A DNA stretch of 64,000 nucleotides from an uncultured delta proteobacterium (GTDB taxonomy: Bacteria > Desulfobacterota > Binatia > UBA9968), in assembly GCA_963804165.1 (NCBI GenBank), contig CAWDPO010000036.1:1-64000 (forward strand). The letters are read 5' to 3'. Below are positions 35,431 through 46,542 of the stretch, piece by piece. The notes below the pieces were generated by a model that saw nothing but the letters and a program-made list of their open reading frames with translations, was not told the DNA's origin and searched no databases. Position numbers and translations under genes: made by a program. How positions within the stretch are numbered: position 1 is the first letter of the stretch; each line of letters starts with the position of its first letter.

Positions 35431-36432
35431 CTATCTTGTGCCGCGCAGTTCTTTGCGCGCTCTGTCGAGGAAACTGAAATCGACGACCTGGGCGGAGCTG
35501 AGGGGCTGCGTAACGTTGGAAGTTTCGCGCGTCAAGTCGATGAAGTACTGCACCGCTTCCGGAGTGACGACAGCGTCTTTGGCCAAACCGCGCTTCAAGT
35601 ATCCCAACATCTCTCCGGCGAGTTTGGTGTCGTCGACGCGCCATTGTTTCATCATGGTGTCGCGCGCCAGATCGCGGGTCGCCTCGTCCGTGACGAACAG
35701 CAAGCCGCGCAAGGTGGCGCGCACCATTTTATAGACTTCTTCGGGCTGCTGTTGGATCCGCGTCACCGACGTGCCAAATCCGTTCTGTGGAAAACTGACC
35801 ACGTCGCCCAGGAAGATCAGCTCGTTATAGCCCTTGTGGAGCGCGATAATATTTTCCGGCACAGACAGCAGCGAGGCGTCCACAACGCCTTGCTCCAACA
35901 CGGCCAGGCGCCCGGCGCCCGAACCCCCCATCGGCAAGACCTGCACGTCTTTCCCCGGTTCGAGACCGAAGTGTTTGAGCGCCTGATAAGCGAGAATCGT
36001 CGCCGAGCCGCCGGGGGAGCTGCCGGCAACCTTCTTGCCTCTGAGATCACGCGGGTCTTTGATCTCCTTGCGACTCATAAAAGACTGCAGCGGCTTTGCG
36101 ACCGTAAAGATCAAAATCTTCGCCGGGTAATTTCTCGCCGCGGCGAGTGCCAAACCCGTGAGCCCAGCGCTGTAGTCGATCTCGCCCTTGAAAAATGCAT
36201 TGTTCGCGGCGGCGAGGGACATCAGGATGATCTCGAGATCGATGCCTTCGTCGCGATAGAAACCACGATGGTAGGCGGCGTAAATGGGCAGAAAGCCGAC
36301 GCTGGTTGCGGCGATGCCCAGACGAACCTTTTTAAGATTGGACTGTGCGTCAGTGTTTGACGGCGTGAGCGCCGCATAAAAAAGTGCAAAGTAACAAATC
36401 AATGCTCGTGCGCGGTAACTACATTGAGGCAT
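35431..36432 (-). CDS. NMT1/TauA-like substrate-binding protein (tandem paralogue)
   Basis: Shares SRKEIKDPRDL, GSSPGG, FPQNGFG and VDFSFLDR with its neighbour. Confidence 0.88.
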   Translation of the reverse strand: MPQCSYRARALICYFALFYAALTPSNTDAQSNLKKVRLGIAATSVGFLPIYAAYHRGFYRDEGIDLEIILMSLAAANNAFFKGEIDYSAGLTGLALAAARNYPAKILIFTVAKPLQSFMSRKEIKDPRDLRGKKVAGSSPGGSATILAYQALKHFGLEPGKDVQVLPMGGSGAGRLAVLEQGVVDASLLSVPENIIALHKGYNELIFLGDVVSFPQNGFGTSVTRIQQQPEEVYKMVRATLRGLLFVTDEATRDLARDTMMKQWRVDDTKLAGEMLGYLKRGLAKDAVVTPEAVQYFIDLTRETSNVTQPLSSAQVVDFSFLDRARKELRGTR

Positions 36433-36480
36433 GGGCTCGCCAGCGCCTTACTTCTTTTCCCTCGCGAGACCGGCCCTCGA

Positions 36481-36562
36481 TGTCATTCTGAGCCGGAGGC
36501 GAAGAATCTCGGCTTCGTCACTATCTGAAAACACAGGATGCTTCGCGTTGCGCAGCATGACA
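36481..36562. repeat. REP-like palindromic element (TGTCAT...ATGACA family), empty copy
   Basis: TGTCATTCTGAGCCGGAGGCGAAGAATCT ... GGATGCTTCGCGTTGCGCAGCATGACA. Confidence 0.8.
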
Positions 36563-36644
36563 TTCATGTGATCGTCGCGATTCGACATAGTGCGGTTAGA
36601 GGAGCAAATAAGTGCTTGCTGGCCAATTCTTCATTGGCAATGTG

Positions 36645-37820
36645 CTACCTCGCGTGGTGACCGTACAGATAGTGCTGCCGTAAGAGATCCTTTCCGTAGT
36701 CGTTGCCGTTGGGCGTGCGCACGATGACATGGATATGATCTTTGTACGGCTTGGTCTTTTCGCGGAAAGCGATGCCGCGCTGGTGGTCGAACTCGACGAT
36801 GATCACAGGGCTTTGGACCCGGTAGTAGAACGTACTGTCGTCCGCCATGCCGCCCATCCAGCAAAAATAAGTGTTCTTGAGATGCTGCTTCACTTCTTCC
36901 ATCTTCAGTTGGGCATGCCCGCTGCGCATGCGCGCGACGTGGTATGCGACGAGATCGAGCAGGAGGTCGTGTTGCTGGCTGGACAATTCACCGTAGCGGA
37001 TACCGCTGTAGTCGAGCACCAGGTTGTCGCGGAAAGCCGTGGTAAAATCCTGGCCCGCGGTCTCCGGAGCGATGACCGTCTTGGCGCGCTGCGCGTCCGA
37101 AAGGGTGCGCGCCAAGGCGCGGCCACGATCTTCGTCGTCTTTGAAAATTTTCAAGCCGGCGTACTTTCCCGTTGTGGCGTGCACAGGTTCCGCGCCGAGA
37201 AATGTCGGCGTGACGACGACCTGATCGCCGAGCACGAAATAATTGATGATCAGATGGTGGCCATCCCATTGCCAGCCCCACGGTGCCGTCGCCGAAGGAT
37301 TGCCCATGATACTCAGCCAGTAGAGGTCCTCGCCGTATTCACTAAGCCTGCCGGTCATTTCCAGCACCGTCTCGTTCAGGTGCATGATATTGAGGGCTTC
37401 TTCGAAACCGTCCCGGCTCAAGCTCTCACGCAGCAGCGCGAAAGCATGGTCGCGTTGAATGTCATTCATCTCGAACAGCGGCGTGCCATGGCGCATGAGA
37501 GTCGGATGAATGTTACTCCACTTGCGCCATTGGTCGGTATCAATAGGAAAAAGTGTTTTGGCGCGCTGCTCAGAATTCAGCGATCCCAGGAATGCCTCTG
37601 CAGCTTCTCGAATCGTCTGCGTCGAAGCGCCGGTTTTTTGAATCCCGTACAAACCGGGAATGACCATGCCGTCGCTGGTGATGCCCTTGAAAGGCTCGGC
37701 CGCAGCCACGAGAGATTTCTCCACATAGTCTGGTCCTCCGCCTTTGGTGTGGAGCGGTCGATTGGGACCGCGCTCGGTGCACGTTTCGGACAAGCCGCGT
37801 GTGCGTGGATCGCTGCTCAT
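36645..37820 (-). CDS. DUF3500 family protein
   Basis: RKWSN, PWGWQWDGHHL, TPTFLGAEP, YYRVQSP and HIHVIVRTPNGNDYG motifs. Confidence 0.88.
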   Translation of the reverse strand: MSSDPRTRGLSETCTERGPNRPLHTKGGGPDYVEKSLVAAAEPFKGITSDGMVIPGLYGIQKTGASTQTIREAAEAFLGSLNSEQRAKTLFPIDTDQWRKWSNIHPTLMRHGTPLFEMNDIQRDHAFALLRESLSRDGFEEALNIMHLNETVLEMTGRLSEYGEDLYWLSIMGNPSATAPWGWQWDGHHLIINYFVLGDQVVVTPTFLGAEPVHATTGKYAGLKIFKDDEDRGRALARTLSDAQRAKTVIAPETAGQDFTTAFRDNLVLDYSGIRYGELSSQQHDLLLDLVAYHVARMRSGHAQLKMEEVKQHLKNTYFCWMGGMADDSTFYYRVQSPVIIVEFDHQRGIAFREKTKPYKDHIHVIVRTPNGNDYGKDLLRQHYLYGHHAR

Positions 37821-37901
37821 AGCTTTGATTCTCCTCGTGCCTTTTCGGTGCGTATCCGGAGTTCTTCTTAGTGCCGGAGCGGAACGGAAGTCAAGAATAG
37901 A

Positions 37902-38111
37902 TTAGCGGGCGGGGCCGGTTGACTCGTACTCTTCGAGCGCGCCGGGAGCCGGGCAGAAAGGCAAACAGTCGCCGCAGCCGGTGCATTCCTGCTCCAGCAC
38001 TTCGTACATGTGATGGATGTCCTGCATCTTCGGGTGGACAGCGTGCTCGGGGCAGACTTCGCGGCAGAGGCCGCAGGCGATGCAGAGGCTTTCGACGATT
38101 CTGACTTTCAT
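37902..38111 (-). CDS. 2x[4Fe-4S] ferredoxin
   Basis: CIACGLCREVCP and CTGCGDCLPFCP. Confidence 0.9.
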   Translation of the reverse strand: MKVRIVESLCIACGLCREVCPEHAVHPKMQDIHHMYEVLEQECTGCGDCLPFCPAPGALEEYESTGPAR

Positions 38112-38329
38112 GGTTGGTTGAGTGGAGAGTTCATGCCTCGATAAGGTTAGCACGAACGGAAAAAATCATTCGCAAAATAATCCGTTCACGCCGAGCTTGT
38201 CGAAGCGTTCTTCCTATTTCGATCCGCCTCTGCCTGAGCAGTTGATCGGCTAGTGACTTGCCGTGAATTTCCGCAGTTTGAATCATCAATCGTTTAATTC
38301 TGTGATTTCACTCCGAGACTGTGTCGCAA

Positions 38330-38404
38330 TGTCATCCTGAGGCGACAGCCGAAGGATCTCGCTTTCGCAAGTCGCTGCAAAGACGAGATGCTTCGCATTG
38401 CTCA
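38330..38404. repeat. Left part of a REP-like element interrupted by the IS110 element
   Basis: TGTCATCCTGAGGCGACAGCCGAAGGATCTC...GAGATGCTTCGCATTGC-TCA; continues as TCA-GCATGACA at 39718-39728. Confidence 0.85.
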
Positions 38405-38609
38405 TCTATGAAAGCTTTGTCAAGGTGGCTGATATTCACATATCGATATTCCGTCAAAGGTTTTGAACAAACTTACTCATATCGTCCGTAGTCCTGCGCA
38501 CCCGATGTTATCGGACTCATCTATTCGCCGTCTAAAGCGGCAGAGGAAAATGCCACAGGGCTGTCGCAATCAGCATTCGAGCCTTGTTTGGCTCATGAGC
38601 GAAACGCGC
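38405..38609 (-). ncRNA. Putative bridge/seek RNA in the downstream non-coding end of the IS
   Basis: Segments matching target and donor junctions flank hairpins (see findings); transcript ends unknown. Confidence 0.7.
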
Positions 38610-39650
38610 TTAGCCCCGCGTGGACGACATCGGTTCCCGATAGGACTCTCCCTTCTTAAGCATCCAGAAAGCCGCCTCGGCCAAGTGTCGGGCGACCGCC
38701 ACAATCGCTTTGCCATGACCGCGCCTGGCTTTGACGTTTTCATACAGCCGGCTGATATGTCGGTACTGGCAGCGCTCGCGGTTGAGCACCGCGCTGTTGG
38801 CCGCCTCGACGAAGGCCCACTTGAGATACAGGTTCACATCTTTGCGCACCCGCCCGTAGCGGATCTTGCCGCCACTGGAGTTCTCTCGCGGTACCAGTCC
38901 CGCATAGCTCGCCAACTGTTCGGCTCGGCCAAAGCGTTCGATGGTGCCGATCTCAGTCCAAATCACCACCGCCAGCATTTCACCGACCCCCGGCTCACTC
39001 TTCAAGTAGGTCGTCTGGGGGCAGGGAGCAAACGCTGCTTGCATCTTTGCTTCGATGACCTTGAGATTGGCTTGTACATGATCGAGTTCGTCAAGCATCA
39101 ACTTCAGCGCTTCGCCGGTATGAGGGGGCAGTTTAGCCAGCAGTCCTTCGAGGATCTGTCGTCCCTGCTTGCCAAAGGCGTCGCTGATTCCGTCCACCTT
39201 AAAGCCGTACTTACTTATAGTGGCGTGAATCCGATTCTTGAGTTGGGTGCGTTGATTGCTCAACACCATGCGGGTGCGCGGCAACTCCCGAGCGTCGCGC
39301 ACCGCGGACGGGGGAATCCAGACCGTCGGCAGGGTTCCTGCCCTCTGCAAACGGTTCATTCCTTTGGCATCCAACTTATCGCTCTTGTTGACGCTGCCGA
39401 TCATCAGCTTGGCCAAGCGTGCATTGACCAGTTGCGGACTCCCTTTTCCAGCTTCGATCTCATCGACTACCCAGTACCAGTTCCCAACCGTCTCCACCGC
39501 CACGGGAGTTCCGGGATTCCACTTCTTGGTAAAGTTCTCGATGGTTCCACCAACGTGCGCGAGTTTGCACTCATAGAGCTTATCGCCCTTGTCGTTTTCC
39601 ACTCGCGCCCAGCTGTAGTGCTTGTGAACATCCAATGCAATGTATTCCAT
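38610..39650 (-). CDS. IS110 family DEDD recombinase/transposase
   Basis: IALDVHK, VAVET and KSDKLDA (DEDD RuvC-like); PGVG and GLVPRENSSGGK (catalytic Ser); KAIVAVARHL; GAAGGAGG RBS. Confidence 0.95.
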   Translation of the reverse strand: MEYIALDVHKHYSWARVENDKGDKLYECKLAHVGGTIENFTKKWNPGTPVAVETVGNWYWVVDEIEAGKGSPQLVNARLAKLMIGSVNKSDKLDAKGMNRLQRAGTLPTVWIPPSAVRDARELPRTRMVLSNQRTQLKNRIHATISKYGFKVDGISDAFGKQGRQILEGLLAKLPPHTGEALKLMLDELDHVQANLKVIEAKMQAAFAPCPQTTYLKSEPGVGEMLAVVIWTEIGTIERFGRAEQLASYAGLVPRENSSGGKIRYGRVRKDVNLYLKWAFVEAANSAVLNRERCQYRHISRLYENVKARRGHGKAIVAVARHLAEAAFWMLKKGESYREPMSSTRG

Positions 39651-39830
39651 TTGCGATTTCCTCCTTCACCCGCCAGTCTAGTCACTGACGCTGTGGATTC
39701 CATCGCTTTCATATTAATCAGCATGACACTAATGGTCGCTCGTTGGTTGCGGCACAGAAGGGGAGAAGGTCGGAGCAATCCGTACGATCAAATTCTCGCA
39801 CTGTGGCCAACCTTTGCCTTTCCTCGTCAC

Positions 39831-40949
39831 TCAGCTCGCCGCCAAAAGTCGCTCGTGGCCCTTCTTCGAAATCGGCGCGAGTTGGGATGTGACCAACGAC
39901 CAGTTTTCGCCGTTATCCTCGCTGCAGTATACCTCGCCGCCGGTGGTGCCGCCGAAAATGGAGCAGTTACCGTTCGATTCTTCAAGACAGAGCGCGCCGA
40001 ACTCATGTTTCAAACTCTCCGGCAATCCGCCGCCAAGCCGTTGCCAGTTTTTTCCGCCATCTTTGCTGCGGTAGATTTTCCCTTCCGCGCGCGCCGCCAG
40101 ACCGGCCTTTCGCCACGTCGTCGGGTTGTGCTCCGCGGCGGCGACGAACATGAGATCGGGATTTTTCGGATTCCACGTGAACCCGTCGGGATAAACGTCC
40201 GCCGCCCAATCCGGGCTCATCCAGCGTTCCCAACTGCCGCCACCGGTATTGGTGACGTACAGTCCTGCGCCGCCCGTGACATAGATTCTTTGCGGATCGC
40301 GAGGATCGATCAAACAGCGGTGCACATCGTAGAAATGTTCGACGGGACGATTTTTATCCGTGAGCAACCCAACCGTATTCAACTCCGTCCAACTCTCTCC
40401 CTCATCGGTGCTTTTCAAAAACGCACCTTGCTCGATGCAAGCATAGATGGTTTTCGAATCTTTGGGATCGAAGGTGATGAATTTCGTGTGTGCCACGTGC
40501 GGCGCCGCTGGAAAAGTCCATTGGGAAACCGTCGGCACGGAGCGGAGCGACGGGATTTCATTCCAATGCAGCCCCAAGTCTTCACTGACGAATAAGTGGG
40601 CCGGCTGGGTGCCGGCGTACACGCGGACTTTGCCGTTGACGACGTTGGACGCCAAGCTGTAAACGTCGTGGATCGGGATGCCGTTGTCGCGGCGTTCCCA
40701 AGTTTTGCCGCCGTCGGTGCTCGCGTGAACAGAGCCGAAAAATGCGCCGGCGAACATGGTGCCGCTCGTGCGCTCGAAGATGATTGCGCTGATATGCTGG
40801 CCGCGCAGCGCGCGCTGGGCTTCACGCCACCTGCCGTTAGTTTCACGCTCGAAGAGCGCCAACCCGTCTTGGGTTCCGACCCAGAGTTGCTGCGACCGTT
40901 CGCTTGACGAGTAAACGTTTGTGCCGCCATGAGAAAGTCCGACCGCCAT
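39831..40949 (-). CDS. BNR/Asp-box beta-propeller protein
   Basis: STDGGKTW, SEDLGLHW, STDEGESW, SKDGGKNW and SEDNGENW repeats. Confidence 0.8.
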   Translation of the reverse strand: MAVGLSHGGTNVYSSSERSQQLWVGTQDGLALFERETNGRWREAQRALRGQHISAIIFERTSGTMFAGAFFGSVHASTDGGKTWERRDNGIPIHDVYSLASNVVNGKVRVYAGTQPAHLFVSEDLGLHWNEIPSLRSVPTVSQWTFPAAPHVAHTKFITFDPKDSKTIYACIEQGAFLKSTDEGESWTELNTVGLLTDKNRPVEHFYDVHRCLIDPRDPQRIYVTGGAGLYVTNTGGGSWERWMSPDWAADVYPDGFTWNPKNPDLMFVAAAEHNPTTWRKAGLAARAEGKIYRSKDGGKNWQRLGGGLPESLKHEFGALCLEESNGNCSIFGGTTGGEVYCSEDNGENWSLVTSQLAPISKKGHERLLAAS

Positions 40950-41158
40950 AAATCACCTCCGGCTAAGGATTGAGTGTCTTTTTGAGCAAGACTTGCTCGA
41001 ACAGTTTGCACTGTATCAACCGCGCTTCTTCGCCGTCAATGGGTTGTTTTGCGCTGGTCGTGCCGGAGGCCAATCGAATTATGTGAGCGATTTAAATCTG
41101 ACCTTCCGGGTGCCACAGGACTGGGCGCAACCCTATGCAGACGCCGACTCATGCCTGG

Positions 41159-42166
41159 CTATTTCAGCCGTCCTTCCTTGCGCAGCTCCAGCTGCGCCTG
41201 CTTGAGGATTTTATCGTTGATCACTCGGTCTAGAGTAAAGTTTTTATCGACAACGCCGGCGCGGATGTCTTCGTCGAGCATGATCTGGATGCCGTCATGT
41301 GCCACCGAGAGGTCGGCGGCGTACCCGGGGCTGAAGAGATCGTAGGAGCGATTGATGAGTTCCGGTTCTCCTGGGAGACCGCTGGCGATGCCGATTTGGA
41401 TCGCTTCTTTCTTGTTGTGCTTTGCCACTTGCATTCCCAAAATCATCGCTTTGAGAAAGCGCTTCGACGTCTCGGGGTATTTCTGCAGCATCTCCCCGCG
41501 CGTGACGAGGATACTCTGGGGGATGCGTAACGCCTCGTTCAGGTTCACGATCATCGGGTATCCCTTGTCGAGGAGCCTTATTGTATCCTCGGCCGTGAAA
41601 GGTGCGGCCGAGATGACTCCTCGTTCGAGCGCGATGGCGCGCAACGCGGTTCCGCCGATGGCTCGGAGCGTGACATCGCGATCCGGATCGATATTGTGTC
41701 GCTTGAGGAATATTCTAATTGCGAAATCCGAGTAAGCGCCGGCGCCGGTAACGCCGATGATTTTGCCGCGCAGCTCTTCGATGCTCTTGACTTCTTTGCT
41801 GCCGAGCAAGGTGTAGTTCGTGTAGTTCGATAATGAGGCAAGGATGTGCAGGTCGAGGCCGCGGGCGTTACCGCGGATCGGCGCCTGGGCCCCGCCGATG
41901 CTGCCAAACTCCACGTTGCCGGAGATGAGAGCGGCGATTGCCGTCGGTCCGCCGCGCACAAAGATTTGCTCGACACTCAAACCCTGGTCTTTGAAAAAGC
42001 CTTTGGCGATGGCAATGCGGTAGGGGAGCTGGTTGTTCCACGAGAGACTGACGAAAACGATGCGCAGGTTTTTTTTCTCTTGAGCGTGGATACCCGGAGA
42101 GTCGAAAAATAGGGCGGAGAGGGCCAATAAGACGAACATGAAACTCGAAAATTTGGTTCGGGTCAT
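41159..42166 (-). CDS. NMT1/TauA-like substrate-binding protein
   Basis: Signal peptide from MTRTKFSS; KGFFKDQGL and ELRGKIIGV motifs. Confidence 0.88.
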   Translation of the reverse strand: MTRTKFSSFMFVLLALSALFFDSPGIHAQEKKNLRIVFVSLSWNNQLPYRIAIAKGFFKDQGLSVEQIFVRGGPTAIAALISGNVEFGSIGGAQAPIRGNARGLDLHILASLSNYTNYTLLGSKEVKSIEELRGKIIGVTGAGAYSDFAIRIFLKRHNIDPDRDVTLRAIGGTALRAIALERGVISAAPFTAEDTIRLLDKGYPMIVNLNEALRIPQSILVTRGEMLQKYPETSKRFLKAMILGMQVAKHNKKEAIQIGIASGLPGEPELINRSYDLFSPGYAADLSVAHDGIQIMLDEDIRAGVVDKNFTLDRVINDKILKQAQLELRKEGRLK

Positions 42167-42293
42167 GAGCTGTTCTACCGTTTCACTTTGATGATCGATG
42201 GGCCGATGCCCTTGGCGCGACGGTTCAGCAGTGTCGAGATTGCGCACGCAGACGCGCAGCACTTCGCCTCCCGCTACCGCATCCTGTTGCCCA

Positions 42294-43268
42294 TTAGCGT
42301 TTACTCTCAAGTTCTTCCTTGACCTCGCGCATCAGTTTTAAATTCATCACTTTTTCCGGCGGAATGTCTTCCTTGATTTTAAGAGGAGCCTTGACATCGT
42401 ATTCCATCAAATTCTTGATTCCCTGCGCGGTCGGGAGACCCGGGACGCCTTCCGGCAGCGACTTGGCAAAGCGGCGGATACCTTCGATGACCAAGGGCCG
42501 GGTCATGTTGCCCATGGGAATCTTCTTCATGGCGATATCCGCGGCTTCCTCGGGGCGCTCGCGGATGAACATCAGCGCCCGAGCCATCGGGCGAAGCCAT
42601 CTTTTGATGTCATTTGGCCGTTCGGCGATCATCTTGTCCGTGGCGACAAAACCCTGGAAGGGGTACGGGAACAAATCGCCGACGAACGCGAGGGTACGCA
42701 ATCCTTCCTTCTCGCCGAGCAAAGATTCATCGGCGTTGACTACCGCCGCGCTGAACGCGCCGGTCTTGAGCGATAGTATCGTATTGGTCGTATTGCGCGA
42801 AGGCATCGCCACCCGGCTGATGTCGCGCCCGGAGACTCCTTCGCGCTCCACCAGCATGGTGATGAGCGCGTCCTGGGTATCGCCGACGGTGCCGACGGCC
42901 ACCCGTTTGCCTTTGAGATCGGATATTTTTTGGATATCCGCCGCGGCCAACAGGTACCAAGTCACTTTCTCGGTTTGAAACATTATGGCTTTGATCGGCG
43001 CGCCGCGCAGCGCCGCGCGCATGCCCGTGCCGCCTGCGCCGCTATACTCGACGTTACCGCTCACCAAGGCGGCAATAGCGGTGCTGCCCGGAATAACGAT
43101 TGTTTGGTTGTCCAAACCTTGGTCGCGAAAATAGCCTTTTACCTCGGCGACGGGGACGCTGAGGTAATTCAGCGTCGCTCGCGGAATGACGGTCCTGACT
43201 TGTTCGCCCAAAGCCGCTGATGCCAGTAAACTAACGAACAAGCCGATTGCGATTTGCACCGCCGTCAT
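42294..43268 (-). CDS. NMT1/TauA-like substrate-binding protein
   Basis: Signal peptide; KGYFRDQGL and DLKGKRVAVG motifs. Confidence 0.88.
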   Translation of the reverse strand: MTAVQIAIGLFVSLLASAALGEQVRTVIPRATLNYLSVPVAEVKGYFRDQGLDNQTIVIPGSTAIAALVSGNVEYSGAGGTGMRAALRGAPIKAIMFQTEKVTWYLLAAADIQKISDLKGKRVAVGTVGDTQDALITMLVEREGVSGRDISRVAMPSRNTTNTILSLKTGAFSAAVVNADESLLGEKEGLRTLAFVGDLFPYPFQGFVATDKMIAERPNDIKRWLRPMARALMFIRERPEEAADIAMKKIPMGNMTRPLVIEGIRRFAKSLPEGVPGLPTAQGIKNLMEYDVKAPLKIKEDIPPEKVMNLKLMREVKEELESKR

Positions 43269-43419
43269 AAGAGTAGGCTCCGATCAGATTACAGTTTCCG
43301 CCGATTCAATACCGGTCGTTAAGCATATAAAGACAAGGCTCAACTTCGTCAAGGACAACGACGGAGCGAATTTGTATAATGCGTTGATAAGTCATACGCA
43401 AAATCGCTGGAGGCAAGCT

Positions 43420-44406
43420 ATGGCAATGGCACGAGTGCTAGTGGAGGAATTTCAACCGGAAGTGCTCAAGTGGCTGCGCGAACGCGTTGAGCTGGTGGTC
43501 ATCAATCCGTGGCTGGAACCGCAGCGCTGGGAATTGGAACTCACCCGCGTCGACGCGGTGATCAGCCGCAAAGGCAAGATCACGCGCGAACAGATGGAAC
43601 GTAACGGCGGGCGTCTCAAGATCATCGCCCGCACAGGCGTCGGCGTCGACCCATCCAGGGTCGATCTCGAAGCCGCCAAGGAGTTCAAGATCTGGGTGAC
43701 CAACCAGCCGGGAAGTAACGCCGTGTCGGTGGCCGAGTTGGTTTTCGGTCAGATGATTGCGCTCGTGCGCCACACTCATGAGGCGCATCGTGCGGTCAAG
43801 GAAGATCGCTGGAGCGATTATCTCAAATTCATCGGCGCCGAGCTTGCGGGCAAGACGATCGGTATCGTGGGACTGGGCAACATCGGCATGCGCGTCGCGC
43901 TGCGCGCCCGCGCATTCGAAATGGACGTTTTGGTCGATGATCCCTACATACCGGAATCCCACGTAACTGCTCTGGGCGGCAAATGGGTCGGACTCGAAGA
44001 GTTGCTGGCGGAGGCGGATTTTGTGACGATTCATTGCCCGCTCAACCGAGAAACGAGAGGCATGATCAGCCGGAAAGATCTCGCGCTCATGAAGCGGTCG
44101 GCATTTCTGATCAATGCGGCGCGCGGCGGTATTATAGACGAGGAGGCTTTGGGCGCGGTCTTGCGCGAAAGGAAGATCGCGGGCGCCGCTTTGGATGTCG
44201 TCGCCGACGAACCGCCGGCTAAAAACCATCCGCTCATTCAACTCGACAACGTGCTCTGGACGCCGCACCTTGGCGCGGTGACCTTGGAAGCGTCCGAACG
44301 CGGCGAGTGGGGCGCTGCGGAAGAGGTGATTCGAGTGCTGGAAAGCAAGCGTCCGAAAAATCCGGTGGTCGATGCCGACGAAGCGAGGTTGCTGCTGCCG
44401 GCTTAG
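43420..44406 (+). CDS. D-isomer specific 2-hydroxyacid dehydrogenase (SerA-like, no ACT domain)
   Basis: ARTGVGVD, GLGNIG, HCPLN, INAARGG and TPHLG motifs. Confidence 0.9.
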   Translation: MAMARVLVEEFQPEVLKWLRERVELVVINPWLEPQRWELELTRVDAVISRKGKITREQMERNGGRLKIIARTGVGVDPSRVDLEAAKEFKIWVTNQPGSNAVSVAELVFGQMIALVRHTHEAHRAVKEDRWSDYLKFIGAELAGKTIGIVGLGNIGMRVALRARAFEMDVLVDDPYIPESHVTALGGKWVGLEELLAEADFVTIHCPLNRETRGMISRKDLALMKRSAFLINAARGGIIDEEALGAVLRERKIAGAALDVVADEPPAKNHPLIQLDNVLWTPHLGAVTLEASERGEWGAAEEVIRVLESKRPKNPVVDADEARLLLPA

Positions 44407-44411
44407 CTCAA

Positions 44412-44483
44412 AGTGAGGAGCGAGAAGTCAGGAGTGAGCAGTGAGATCCTAACCCCCTGACTCCTCACTCTTTACTCCTCACT
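44412..44483. repeat. Inverted 7-mer tandem repeat cassette
   Basis: 5 x AGTGAGG-like units then 4 x CCTCACT-like units between convergent genes. Confidence 0.75.
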
Positions 44484-45624
44484 TTTTGATCGAGCGGCGG
44501 AGGGTTTCCTTGATCGCTGGCGGCATGCTGAGGAAGTCTGCGACGATAGCTTGAATGGACGCGCCGAAGATCGGCGTGATTTCCAGCTTGCTTTTCTCGG
44601 CGTCCGCTAAGAAATTCTTATCGCTAAAGGTTTTTACAAACGCAGCCTCAAGAGCGGCCGCGCGCTCGGCCGAGACGCCCGGCGGCAGCATATAGACCTT
44701 GCCGAATTGATTGGGTGCGCTCGTGCCGTAGCGCAGCAGCGACCTGTGCGTCTCGTCTTTCGTCAGCTCAGGGATAGTCGGAATGCCGTTCGTGGGGAGA
44801 TCTCGCAGTGGCTGATCAGTCAACTGAGCGAGCACCAGCCATTCTCCCGACTTGAACTTGTCCAAAGCTGTGGGCTTGATCGTGCTCCAGGGATTGAAAA
44901 ATCCGCCGATCTCGCCTGCGTCGATCGCCAAACGGATATCGGCGCTGCCCTTGTAACCGGAAACGATTTTCATGTTCGCGTTCAGGAGCGTCGCGCAGCA
45001 GGGCCGGAGCGTGCTCCAGCGTCGAATTGGGTATCGCGCCGATTATGGTTTGCTTGGCATTGGGTCCGATGACTTCGCTGAATTTCGTGATGCCGGACTG
45101 CCGCGCGACGATCATCACATAGGTTTCATTCACCGGCACCGCCAGATAGCGAAACTTCGCCATGTCGAAGTGCACTCCCGAGCTTTCGAAGAGCTGCTCG
45201 AGAATCGCCGCGCCGTTGAGCATGCCGATCTCCGTGCCGTCCTTGGCGCCGCTGTTGAAAATGTGGTTGCCGGCGATGATGCTGCCCGCGCCGGGCATAT
45301 TACTGACGGCGAGAGTGGGATTGCCCGGGATAAAGCGGCCGAGATGACGCGCGATCAAACGCGAATAAACATCGGCGCCGCCGCCCGGCGGAAAGCCGAC
45401 GACGATGCGCACGATCTTGCCACGATAGAAATCCGCCGCTGCGCGTTCATTGAACGTTGCGGCGGTCGGGTTTTGTGTTGGCAGTGTGGGCGCCGGCAGA
45501 TATAGTGAAAGCCAGAAAAAGCAGCGACAAAAAGATTTGGCAGCTGCGACTCACGGGCCTTTAGCAGGCGGCCTGTCTCAATCGAGCCATTCAAATTAGC
45601 GTTAACAAAATTCGTAGCGGTCAT
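44479..45624 (-). CDS. Tripartite tricarboxylate transporter substrate-binding protein (TctC/Bug-like), frameshifted; start uncertain
   Basis: IVVGFPPGGGADVYSR, NMPGAGS and GYKGSADIRLA motifs in successive frames. Confidence 0.8.
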
Positions 45625-45639
45625 CTGAGTTTCGCTCCC

Positions 45640-45744
45640 GTCATCCTGAGCCGGAGGCGAAGGATCTGCTTTTATCGGGCTGAAAGCAGATCCTTCGTCG
45701 CAGAGTTTACGCTGAGCAAAGTCGAAGGGCTCCTCAGGATGACA
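45640..45744. repeat. REP-like palindromic element (TGTCAT...ATGACA family), composite empty copy
   Basis: GTCATCCTGAGCCGGAGGCGAAGGATCT...AGATCCTTCG...CTCAGGATGACA with an internal ACGCTGAGCAAAGTCGAAGGG unit. Confidence 0.8.
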
Positions 45745-45832
45745 TGCTTCAGCAATTTATTGTTAGTTTGACGAATAGCTTAGTGAAGTGGCGGTTTAAC
45801 GCCGAAGTCGCCGAACGGTAACTGATACGGTT

Positions 45833-46542
45833 TTATCGCAGCGCGCCTTTGCCGACTTCGACCGTGCCGTTTTGGCGCAAGCGCACCACGTTGACGGTTC
45901 CGGTGTATTCCGGCGAGCCGGAGTAATGGGCGGAGATCTTGCCATCGCCGACCGGAGTCGACTGGTTCCAATGTCCGAGGGCGACGTAGTCGGCGCCGGT
46001 GGCGGCGAGCTCTTCAGGATGAATCAGCCAGGAGCCGATCAGCCGATTCGGATCGCGCTCTTGATCGACGTAATGACCGTGGGCTGCGGCAAGCTGCCAG
46101 CGCGTTGTGCGCGGGCGCGGGTTGGCCAGCGGCGACATGTCGGTGTAATCGAAATGCGCGTGGCCCCAGATTTCCAACTCAAACTCGTCGAAGATGGCCG
46201 CGTGCTCGACGTTCAGGCCGAGAATACGGACATTGGGGATTAGCCCGAGTCCGGCTCGACGATAGACCGAGTCGGGAGTGAGCGGGTCGTGATTCCCCGG
46301 CAAGATGACTACAGGGTTTCGGTATTCGCGCAGCATTTGTGCGGCGCGTTCGAGCAGCTCAATCGGCTGGCGATGGTTGTCAAACGAATCGCCGGCGAGC
46401 AAGACCACGTCCGCCCGACGTCCGCGGCTGCCGTCAATACCTTTGGTAGCACGGCCAATCGATCTTTGTCGCTGAAGCTGTCATCCGTGCCAAGATGAAG
46501 ATCCGAACTGTGAACGATCGTTACTTCTGGGTGTGAAGCCAT
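45833..46542 (-). CDS. Metallophosphoesterase (SbcD/Mre11-like), frameshift near 46410
   Basis: HSSDLHLG, AGDSFD, PGNHD, AHG, ALGHW and YSGSPE motifs. Confidence 0.85.

Follow-up and report, generated by a model that had tools for sequence, protein, structure and literature searches.

An IS1111-type insertion sequence in a REP-like palindrome of an uncultured Binatia bacterium: two subfamilies, two arm subtypes and many vacant sites

The window analysed here, a stretch of 64,000 nucleotides (nt) from an uncultured delta proteobacterium of the Binatia (assembly GCA_963804165.1, contig CAWDPO010000036.1, here C36), carries on its minus strand, at 38405-39720, an insertion sequence (IS) that splits one arm of a repetitive extragenic palindromic (REP)-like element, and two sister elements of the same kind in the window are vacant. 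The locus raises the question of what leads the insertion sequence into such an arm, and of whether complementarity between arm and guide decides which arms are occupied, as had been proposed in an earlier reading of the sequence alone (hereafter, the original prediction). The results strongly support the view that 38405-39720 is an intact IS1111-group element of the IS110 family (RNA-guided DEDD transposases) that uses its own guide RNA. Guide match is necessary but not sufficient, and occupancy is not predicted by match.

The interrupted arm, the element and its copies

The triplet TCA stands at 38402-38404 and is repeated at 39718-39720, as read directly in the window. Removal of 38405-39720 leaves ...GATGCTTCGCATTGC-TCA joined to GCATGACA, an arm with a single TCA, exactly as originally claimed. 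The arm split in this way is the right arm of the REP-like element; its restored form, taken on the transposase strand, agrees at each of 28 nt with a vacant arm of the same genome (C25:3524). The features that define the insertion are the following:

38331-38361, plus strand: left arm of the REP, C-type (GTCATCCTGA...GAAGGATC), vacant; read from the sequence, with the subtype taken from the arm census and hairpin covariation
38385-38404, minus strand: inner part of the right arm of the REP (G-type), with the right target flank AGCAATGCGAAGCATCTC after the TG core on the transposase strand
38403-38404, no strand assigned: right-end copy of the core, reading CA on the plus strand and TG on the transposase strand, defined from 58 relatives
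38405-39720, minus strand: the insertion sequence, 1316 bp with one core copy (unique part 38405-39718), both ends common to the genome copies
38407-38415, no strand assigned: sub-terminal inverted repeat of the right end, TATGAAAGC on the plus strand, kept beside the junctions in relatives
38610-39650, minus strand: transposase gene, 346 amino acids (aa), intact, recognised by Pfam and NCBIfam profiles
39705-39713, no strand assigned: sub-terminal inverted repeat of the left end, GCTTTCATA on the plus strand, read directly
39719-39720, no strand assigned: left-end copy of the core, reading CA on the plus strand and TG on the transposase strand
39721-39728, minus strand: outer part of the right arm of the REP, the left target flank TGTCATGC on the transposase strand

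The exchange had been placed at TCA in the original prediction. The duplication of TCA at both ends stands, but the core common to 58 relatives is TG (CA on the plus strand of the window); the letter after TG varies among the relatives and is a target position read by the guide, so that TCA represents the core plus a target letter equal to the first base of the element. Because TGA is common to target and element, the placement of the exchange point is ambiguous; if it is set inside TG, the terminal extensions are 6 and 3 bp.

The transposase gave matches above cut-off to PF01548 (DEDD_Tnp_IS110; E 2.1e-10, residues 5-148) and PF02371 (Transposase_20; E 3.4e-21, residues 215-291), and scored 232.5 bits against a cut-off of 140 with the NCBIfam model NF033542 (IS110 family RNA-guided transposase), over model positions 1-342 of 343, in agreement with the predicted IS110-family identity. 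In the comparison with IS621 (PDB 8wt6), the serine motif GLVPRENSSG (aa 251-260) falls opposite the SG of that protein, the D-x-x-D pair is matched only within a weak stretch of the alignment, and no similarity extends beyond the C-terminal domain (E 2e-11, residues 214-337). IS621, named in the original prediction, belongs to the same superfamily, but the closer relative is the IS1111 group (ISPa11). Indeed, the 3' non-coding end is the longer one (205 nt downstream of the gene, 38405-38609, versus 70 nt upstream, 39651-39720), the sub-terminal inverted repeats are of 9 bp, the 346 aa fall within the range of 330-350, the motif GL-P----S(T)G is present, and the guides follow the order of IS1111 seekRNAs, with the complement of the top strand 5' of the match to the bottom strand. 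Siddiquee et al. (PMC11187229) give this layout for the IS1111 family, together with inverted repeats of 7-17 bp, short asymmetric terminal extensions, proteins of 330-350 aa and the same GL-P----S(T)G motif, and Durrant et al. (PMC11208160) give the same layout.

In the source assembly (7.5 Mb in 46 contigs, 81% complete), the element is present as four copies at 98.9-100% identity (V1), six copies at 80-83% identity and one fragment. Three V1 copies are intact and 1-4 nt apart, and the one on C20 is frameshifted; five of the other six are intact, lie 0-5 nt apart and constitute V2, and the sixth (C30), 48 nt from V2, has a premature stop. The transposases of V1 and V2 are 88% identical, and both subfamilies, with their near-identical copies, have been recently active. 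The junction motif is the same in all ten full-length copies and in a partial one, and it reads ...GC-TCA / element / GCATGACA in the four V1 copies and ...GC-TCA / element / GAATGACA in the six V2-type copies (only the second flank is readable in the copy at a contig end). Outer flanks are unrelated among the copies, indicating that the insertions are independent. A frameshifted V1 and an intact V2, the latter reaching the contig end, lie 3.4 kb apart (C20:85271-86588 and C20:89974-91289), and a third, incomplete copy whose RNA end is missing (C22:28901-29690) lies at GTCATTT-TGA, a fourth left-flank variant. In keeping with the original prediction, every copy was found in the same family of palindrome arms and none at unrelated sequence, and arms that are uninterrupted and carry TCA only once do occur.

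The arms are far more numerous than the copies. The genome contains 242 arm 10-mers, comprising 101 of C-type (GTCATCCTGA), 92 of T-type (GTCATTCTGA) and 49 of G-type (GTCATGCTGA); since about 14 of each would be expected at uniform composition, these counts exceed chance. Each arm is a small hairpin, ATxCT...AGyAT, in which y lies about ten bases beyond x and the two are complementary in 137 of 142 readable arms, and the TG core falls at the boundary between stem and loop. V1 is confined to GTCATGCTGA arms (four of four copies) and the V2 type to GTCATTCTGA arms (six of six), and the 101 GTCATCCTGA arms hold no copy; under random placement among the 242 arms, the corresponding probabilities are (49/242)^4 = 0.0017 for V1 and (92/242)^6 = 0.0030 for the V2 type. 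A REP with V2 in one arm has a vacant V1-cognate site as its other arm, and vice versa (C17:220343, C3:196993, C20:86661), and no REP with both arms occupied was seen.

As short imperfect palindromes in many copies, mostly intergenic and often in inverted pairs, these elements resemble REPs and bacterial interspersed mosaic elements (BIMEs); by a crude measure, 12/16 and 17/24 of the vacant arms bearing the 9-mers lie outside open frames of at least 150 codons. The genome has 18 matches to PF01797 (Y1 transposase; e.g. C15:112517-112879), none with a GTCATxCTGA arm within 1.2 kb, so that a partner of the type of the REP-associated tyrosine transposases (RAYTs) is not evident, unlike in systems of REP doublets forming hairpins (REPINs), where the repeats flank such a gene. 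A literature search for four arm 11-mers as printed sequence gave 190 papers with one of them, and the 15 listed matches were primers or unrelated sequences.

Two side observations concern repeats and IS110-family elements elsewhere in the genome. A further repeat, TTC-ATGCTGAGC-..GTCGAAGCATTC, holds the V1 9-mer preceded by TTC instead of GTC; it has eight copies (e.g. C6:51953, C15, C45), of which none is occupied. A second IS110-family element of about 1.44 kb, with a transposase 26% identical to the one studied, is present in four copies at 98.7-99.8% identity (C34:114862-116304, C34:140334-141774, C15:59115-60556, C6:244229-245671). Three of these lie between ...CTG and TCGAAGG-like flanks and the fourth between ...CCCTA and AAGGGC, and this element appears to be site-specific as well, using another short repeat.

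The predicted guide RNA and its match to the flanks

The 3' end of the element would encode a guide RNA, the parts of which are predicted as follows:

38479-38630, minus strand: predicted seekRNA or bridge RNA, with a closing stem, a target-binding stem-loop, a donor-binding multiloop and a third hairpin, starting inside the last transposase codons
38595-38604, minus strand: 5' loop strand UUUCGCUCAU, the right target guide, complement of the top strand A-TG-AGCGAAA
38568-38578, minus strand: 3' loop strand GAAUGCUGAUU, the left target guide, in the sense of the left flank ATGC followed by TG and the first bases of the element
38515-38526, minus strand: junction strand GAAUAGAUGAGU, putative donor guide, in the sense of the right end of the element, ATAGA-TG-AG

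The structure claim rests on covariation; the single-sequence minimum-free-energy fold of the 3' end is undistinctive (z-score -1.12). The 3' ends of V1, V2 and the decayed copy were aligned, a six-helix structure was written on the alignment, and the covariance model built on it matched 67 of 80 relatives' loci (encoding transposases 39-85% identical, from several phyla), each time starting from the gene end or stop codon and on the same strand. The alignment of the relatives has 90.5% of its cells paired, as opposed to 30-46% in controls with slid partners, and both members have changed in 29 of 34 pairs; the inner stem carries two compensatory pair changes between V1 and V2. A search of 36000-46500 against Rfam gave, at E up to 1, only a chance snoRNA match. 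Judging by the sequence, the RNA would be expressed from 38479-38630.

The internal loop of the first stem-loop has a constant frame and hypervariable inner letters, the 5' strand reading CGC-G, about seven variable letters and mostly CAT, and the 3' strand G, five variable letters and TGA(T/A)T-GCG. The junctions of the relatives were placed by the inverted repeats alone, and the loop letters were then compared with the flanks over 2000 permutations. The left guide matched the left flank at 4.17 of 5 positions, versus 1.41 when permuted (35 distinct pairs; 0/2000 as high), and the right guide matched the right flank at 3.50 of 7, versus 1.89 (38 distinct pairs; 0/2000 as high); some right guides stand one position off register in this simple count, and the true fit is therefore better. 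The putative donor strand, which follows the second small hairpin, matched the last 4 nt of the right end at 3.30 of 4 positions, versus 2.39 permuted (1/2000, with 10 distinct pairs only). A location of the donor strands in the multiloop agrees with the remark by Durrant et al. (PMC11208160) that many IS1111 members carry donor-binding letters there.

The guides of V1 read ATGC on the left and AGCGAAA on the right, those of V2 ATTC and AGCCGCG, and the guide ATGC-TGA-GCGAA given in the original prediction is the one read in the RNA loop. Against these guides, the two sister elements of the window read as follows:

36481-36562, no strand assigned: sister REP, vacant; left arm T-type and V2-cognate (ATTC-TG-AGCCGGA), right arm G-type with C, not A, after TG
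45640-45744, no strand assigned: sister REP, vacant, with C-type arms; neither guide matched at position -2

The letters originally reported for both were found, namely GCA at 36481-36562 where the occupied copy has TCA, and CTCC-TCA-GGATGACA at 45640-45744, with a mismatch to both guides at position -2. The first element had been thought to be spared by a change in the core; this is not the case, since its TG core is intact and the mismatch falls at the first guided position on the right. The near-cognate site ACGC-TGA-GCAAA at 45709-45720 is present as described, but is not special, being one of 1626 sites in the genome with three mismatches to the 13-nt target derived from the V1 guides.

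The same 30-nt arms serve as targets in other bacteria. Exactly at the left junction (position 624), GTCAT(T/C)CTGA is found in 6 of the 80 relatives' loci, five from Nitrospirota (L027-L029, L087, L101) and one from Binatia (L083). The Nitrospirota locus L027, with the guide ATCC, lies in a GTCATCCTGA arm, and T-type arms hold the four other Nitrospirota loci (guide ATTC) and the Binatia locus. A REP arm common to several phyla is unusual for REPs. Two further relatives, L040 and L043, are inserted beside ...TTCGAATCCCGT-TG-GGG, the left part of which presumably corresponds, from its sequence, to the T-arm end of a tRNA gene.

A cycle of transposition can be proposed from these features and from two hexamers near the ends:

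38418-38423, minus strand: TTGACA, 13 nt from the right end, read directly; putative -35-like hexamer
39711-39716, minus strand: TAATAT, starting 2 nt inside the left end, read directly; putative -10-like hexamer

No promoter-like site was found in the integrated element by a simple scan. The element would excise as a circle, in which the joined ends would place TTGACA 17 nt from TAATAT, across the TG core, and so form a promoter; both the circular intermediate and its junction promoter are candidates suggested by the sequence. One internal loop of the RNA would carry both guides, its 3' strand matching 4 nt to the left of the exchange plus the TG core and its 5' strand being the complement of TG and of some 7 nt beyond it on the right, and a second module, a multiloop around a small hairpin, would match the element's own ends. 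The complex of transposase and RNA would then recombine the circle at TG into DNA matching the guides, with guide position -2 (G in V1, T in V2) setting the arm subtype, which would leave the C-type arms of this genome with no matching element.

Occupancy and the rival explanations

Vacancy is the rule among cognate arms, 17 of G-type and 59 of T-type being empty. The proposal that occupancy follows guide complementarity is thus borne out in that the occupied subtypes correspond to ATGC and ATTC, and fails in that most of these arms, and the best 13-nt sites, are vacant. Occupied GTCATxCTG sites do show high ranks in their fit to the right guide (P about 0.003 and about 0.004, one-sided Mann-Whitney), in samples of four and five occupied sites and against a vacant set that mixes REP and other sites; the occupied V2 sites have 1, 1, 2, 2 and 4 mismatches to the 13-nt target. 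With an effective match of about nine letters, hundreds of sites in the genome qualify, and yet only palindrome arms are occupied.

An orthologous empty allele was found neither in sequencing runs nor in 11 related loci, where the REP flanks are too diverged for alignment-based orthology. Contigs from four runs over 37900-40200 consist of short pieces of the element and of REP arms, none of them joining 38404 to 39721, a result that is uninformative either way. The relatives at this intergenic spot are of species level only, with flanking genes about 77-83% identical; the element is absent from all 11 loci, and three of them (G013, G006, G003) have an uninterrupted REP-like element there, the other eight having none or other repeats. 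In one of these eight, G005, whose genome is flagged as unpublished, the stretch showed no arm motif. Only G013 has a G-type arm with a single TCA (...TTCC-TCA-GCATGACA). The paralogous vacant arms are the internal controls.

Several points weigh against the reading of an RNA-guided element whose guides select its arms. The V1 13-nt target has 2 perfect, 15 one-mismatch and 220 two-mismatch sites in the genome, reported vacant, and the four occupied sites have 2-3 mismatches; the V1 right guide fits its occupied sites at 4-5 of 7 positions only, and at the V2 site on C14 the fit is 3 of 7. Between the left end and its putative donor guide the match is weak (3.35 of 7 versus 3.02 permuted; 18/2000). 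The alignment used for the pair counts was fitted to the model and so leans toward the model structure, although the margin is still large. None of the 20 sequencing runs listed as sharing words with the locus (none above 0.30) is recorded as an RNA run. Finally, in an assembly this incomplete and fragmented, the counts of copies and sites are lower bounds.

Two alternatives would remove the guides or the arms from the argument, and both are highly improbable. If the protein alone picked the site and the matches between loop and flanks were by-products, a view for which no specific evidence was found, the loop letters would not be expected to covary with the flanks over 35-38 distinct elements within a constant loop frame, nor would the targets of V1 and V2, whose proteins are 88% identical, differ exactly where their guides differ; in addition, experiments on four IS1111 members have demonstrated RNA dependence (PMC11187229). 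Hardly more credible is the notion that the palindrome halves are part or product of the element rather than a pre-existing target. It could draw on the presence of the same arm motif at the left junction of relatives in Nitrospirota and Binatia (the 6 of 80 loci above), but over 130 arms are free of any element, the copies differ from one another in spacers, partner arms and outer flanks, the arms are unrelated in sequence to the element ends, and three related species have an uninterrupted REP, with no element, at this intergenic position.

Why only REP arms are occupied has to be inferred, and two explanations compete for this point. The one we lean toward, by a modest margin over even chances, is selection after insertion, whereby the RNA would target any match of about nine letters and genic insertions would be lost. 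Better non-REP matches lie mostly in long open frames, so that loss by selection is a sufficient explanation: open frames of at least 150 codons cover both perfect and 13 of 15 one-mismatch V1 sites, 20 of 22 one-mismatch V2 sites, and 66 of 83 vacant non-REP ATGCTGAGC sites, even though the measure is crude, being based on open frames and not on gene calls. Of the REP arms, 3 of 19 are occupied, versus 0 of 17 intergenic-like non-REP sites, a difference that reaches only P of about 0.14; on the other hand, 8 of these 17 sites belong to another repeat with the same 9-mer, and none of the eight is occupied. Less likely, in our judgement, is that the arm hairpin acts as a second recognition determinant, a dual match that would bar the better non-REP sites. 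The hairpin is kept by compensatory change (the 137 of 142 arms above) with the TG core at its stem-loop boundary, all ten copies lie in repeat arms preceded by GTC and none in 83 + 57 non-REP 9-mer sites, the same geometry occurs in 8 of 36 distinct relatives' targets versus 1.95 in shuffled pairings (0/1000 as high), and a target stem-loop is reported to gate ISPpu10, an IS110-group element (10.64898/2026.03.19.712850). Nevertheless, selection accounts for the same hairpin-arm counts, ISPpu10 is arranged differently, with its stem-loop 5' of the left target, and 28 of 36 relatives' targets have no such geometry, so that the hairpin cannot be a general requirement of the clade. The safe-harbour target set of the original prediction is affected in the same way: all copies do lie in REP arms, but selection after insertion explains this equally well.

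The target hairpin as a universal rule of the clade was considered separately and rejected, as only 8 of 36 targets have it. Regarding the surroundings of the insertion, four related loci (L014, L017, L019, L023), of which L017 comes from the genome flagged as unpublished, carry G+C-rich palindromes, CCCTCGCCC...GGGCGAGGG, at the same spot instead of the REP; repeats seem to accumulate at this intergenic position. The interval from the upstream gene to the REP contains a small open frame coding for 83 aa (37902-38153, minus strand), whose DNA is 82-89% identical in four related species, above the neighbouring genes.

Known systems and meaning of the locus

REP targeting by IS1111-type elements has reportedly been known since papers of 2003-2006. 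The element studied here is an ordinary, recently active IS1111-type element in a REP, of a kind known from ISPa11, and it leaves the accepted mechanism unchanged. ISPa11 (IS1111 family, Pseudomonas aeruginosa) shares with it a transposase of 330-350 aa, here a predicted DEDD enzyme, the GL-P----SG motif, the inverted repeats, the long 3' end and the targeting of a REP, a potentially folded sequence (PMC11187229); the likeness seen is one of layout, and here the host and the REP family are others, the core is TG, and two co-resident subfamilies split the REP subtypes. IS621 (IS110 group, Escherichia coli) is alike in RNA-guided recombination at a 2-nt core, in separate target and donor modules and in its REP target, but its RNA lies upstream of the gene and long inverted repeats are absent (PMC11208160), and the donor module is here a multiloop. 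ISPpu10 and ISPpu9 (Pseudomonas putida) likewise use one position of REPs that are often in convergent pairs, with a hairpin discussed as an extra determinant (10.64898/2026.03.19.712850, PMC12288879); these belong to the IS110 group, and the stem-loop of ISPpu10 is placed 5' of the left target, whereas the stem in the present element is made up of the left target and of sequence further out than the right one. For ISEc11 (IS1111 family), as for others, a circle with a junction promoter has been described, which is here read from the letters only; the ISEc11 target is described as short, linear and non-REP (PMC11187229).

What this genome adds is threefold: a single guide letter by which two co-resident subfamilies divide the REP subtypes between them, a clear case in which guide match alone does not predict occupancy, and the use of the same arms as targets in other phyla. 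With transposases 88% identical, guides that differ and a neighbouring stem that has been compensated, V1 and V2 amount to a natural reprogramming experiment with internal controls, and offer a clean natural example for programmable RNA-guided recombinases, a field of current interest. The choice between selection and a structural gate becomes directly testable for an IS1111-type element, and the covariance model together with the junction rule can be used to annotate the clade across several phyla of soil bacteria. A bolder possibility, which we consider doubtful, is that arm subtypes and guide variants form a lock-and-key series, in which a single change at position -2 would have split the lineage, the C-type lock would be used in another phylum, and the arm hairpin would act as a second determinant keeping the element from better-matching genic sites. 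If this were true, the arms common to Nitrospirota and Binatia would mean that target and element have spread together.

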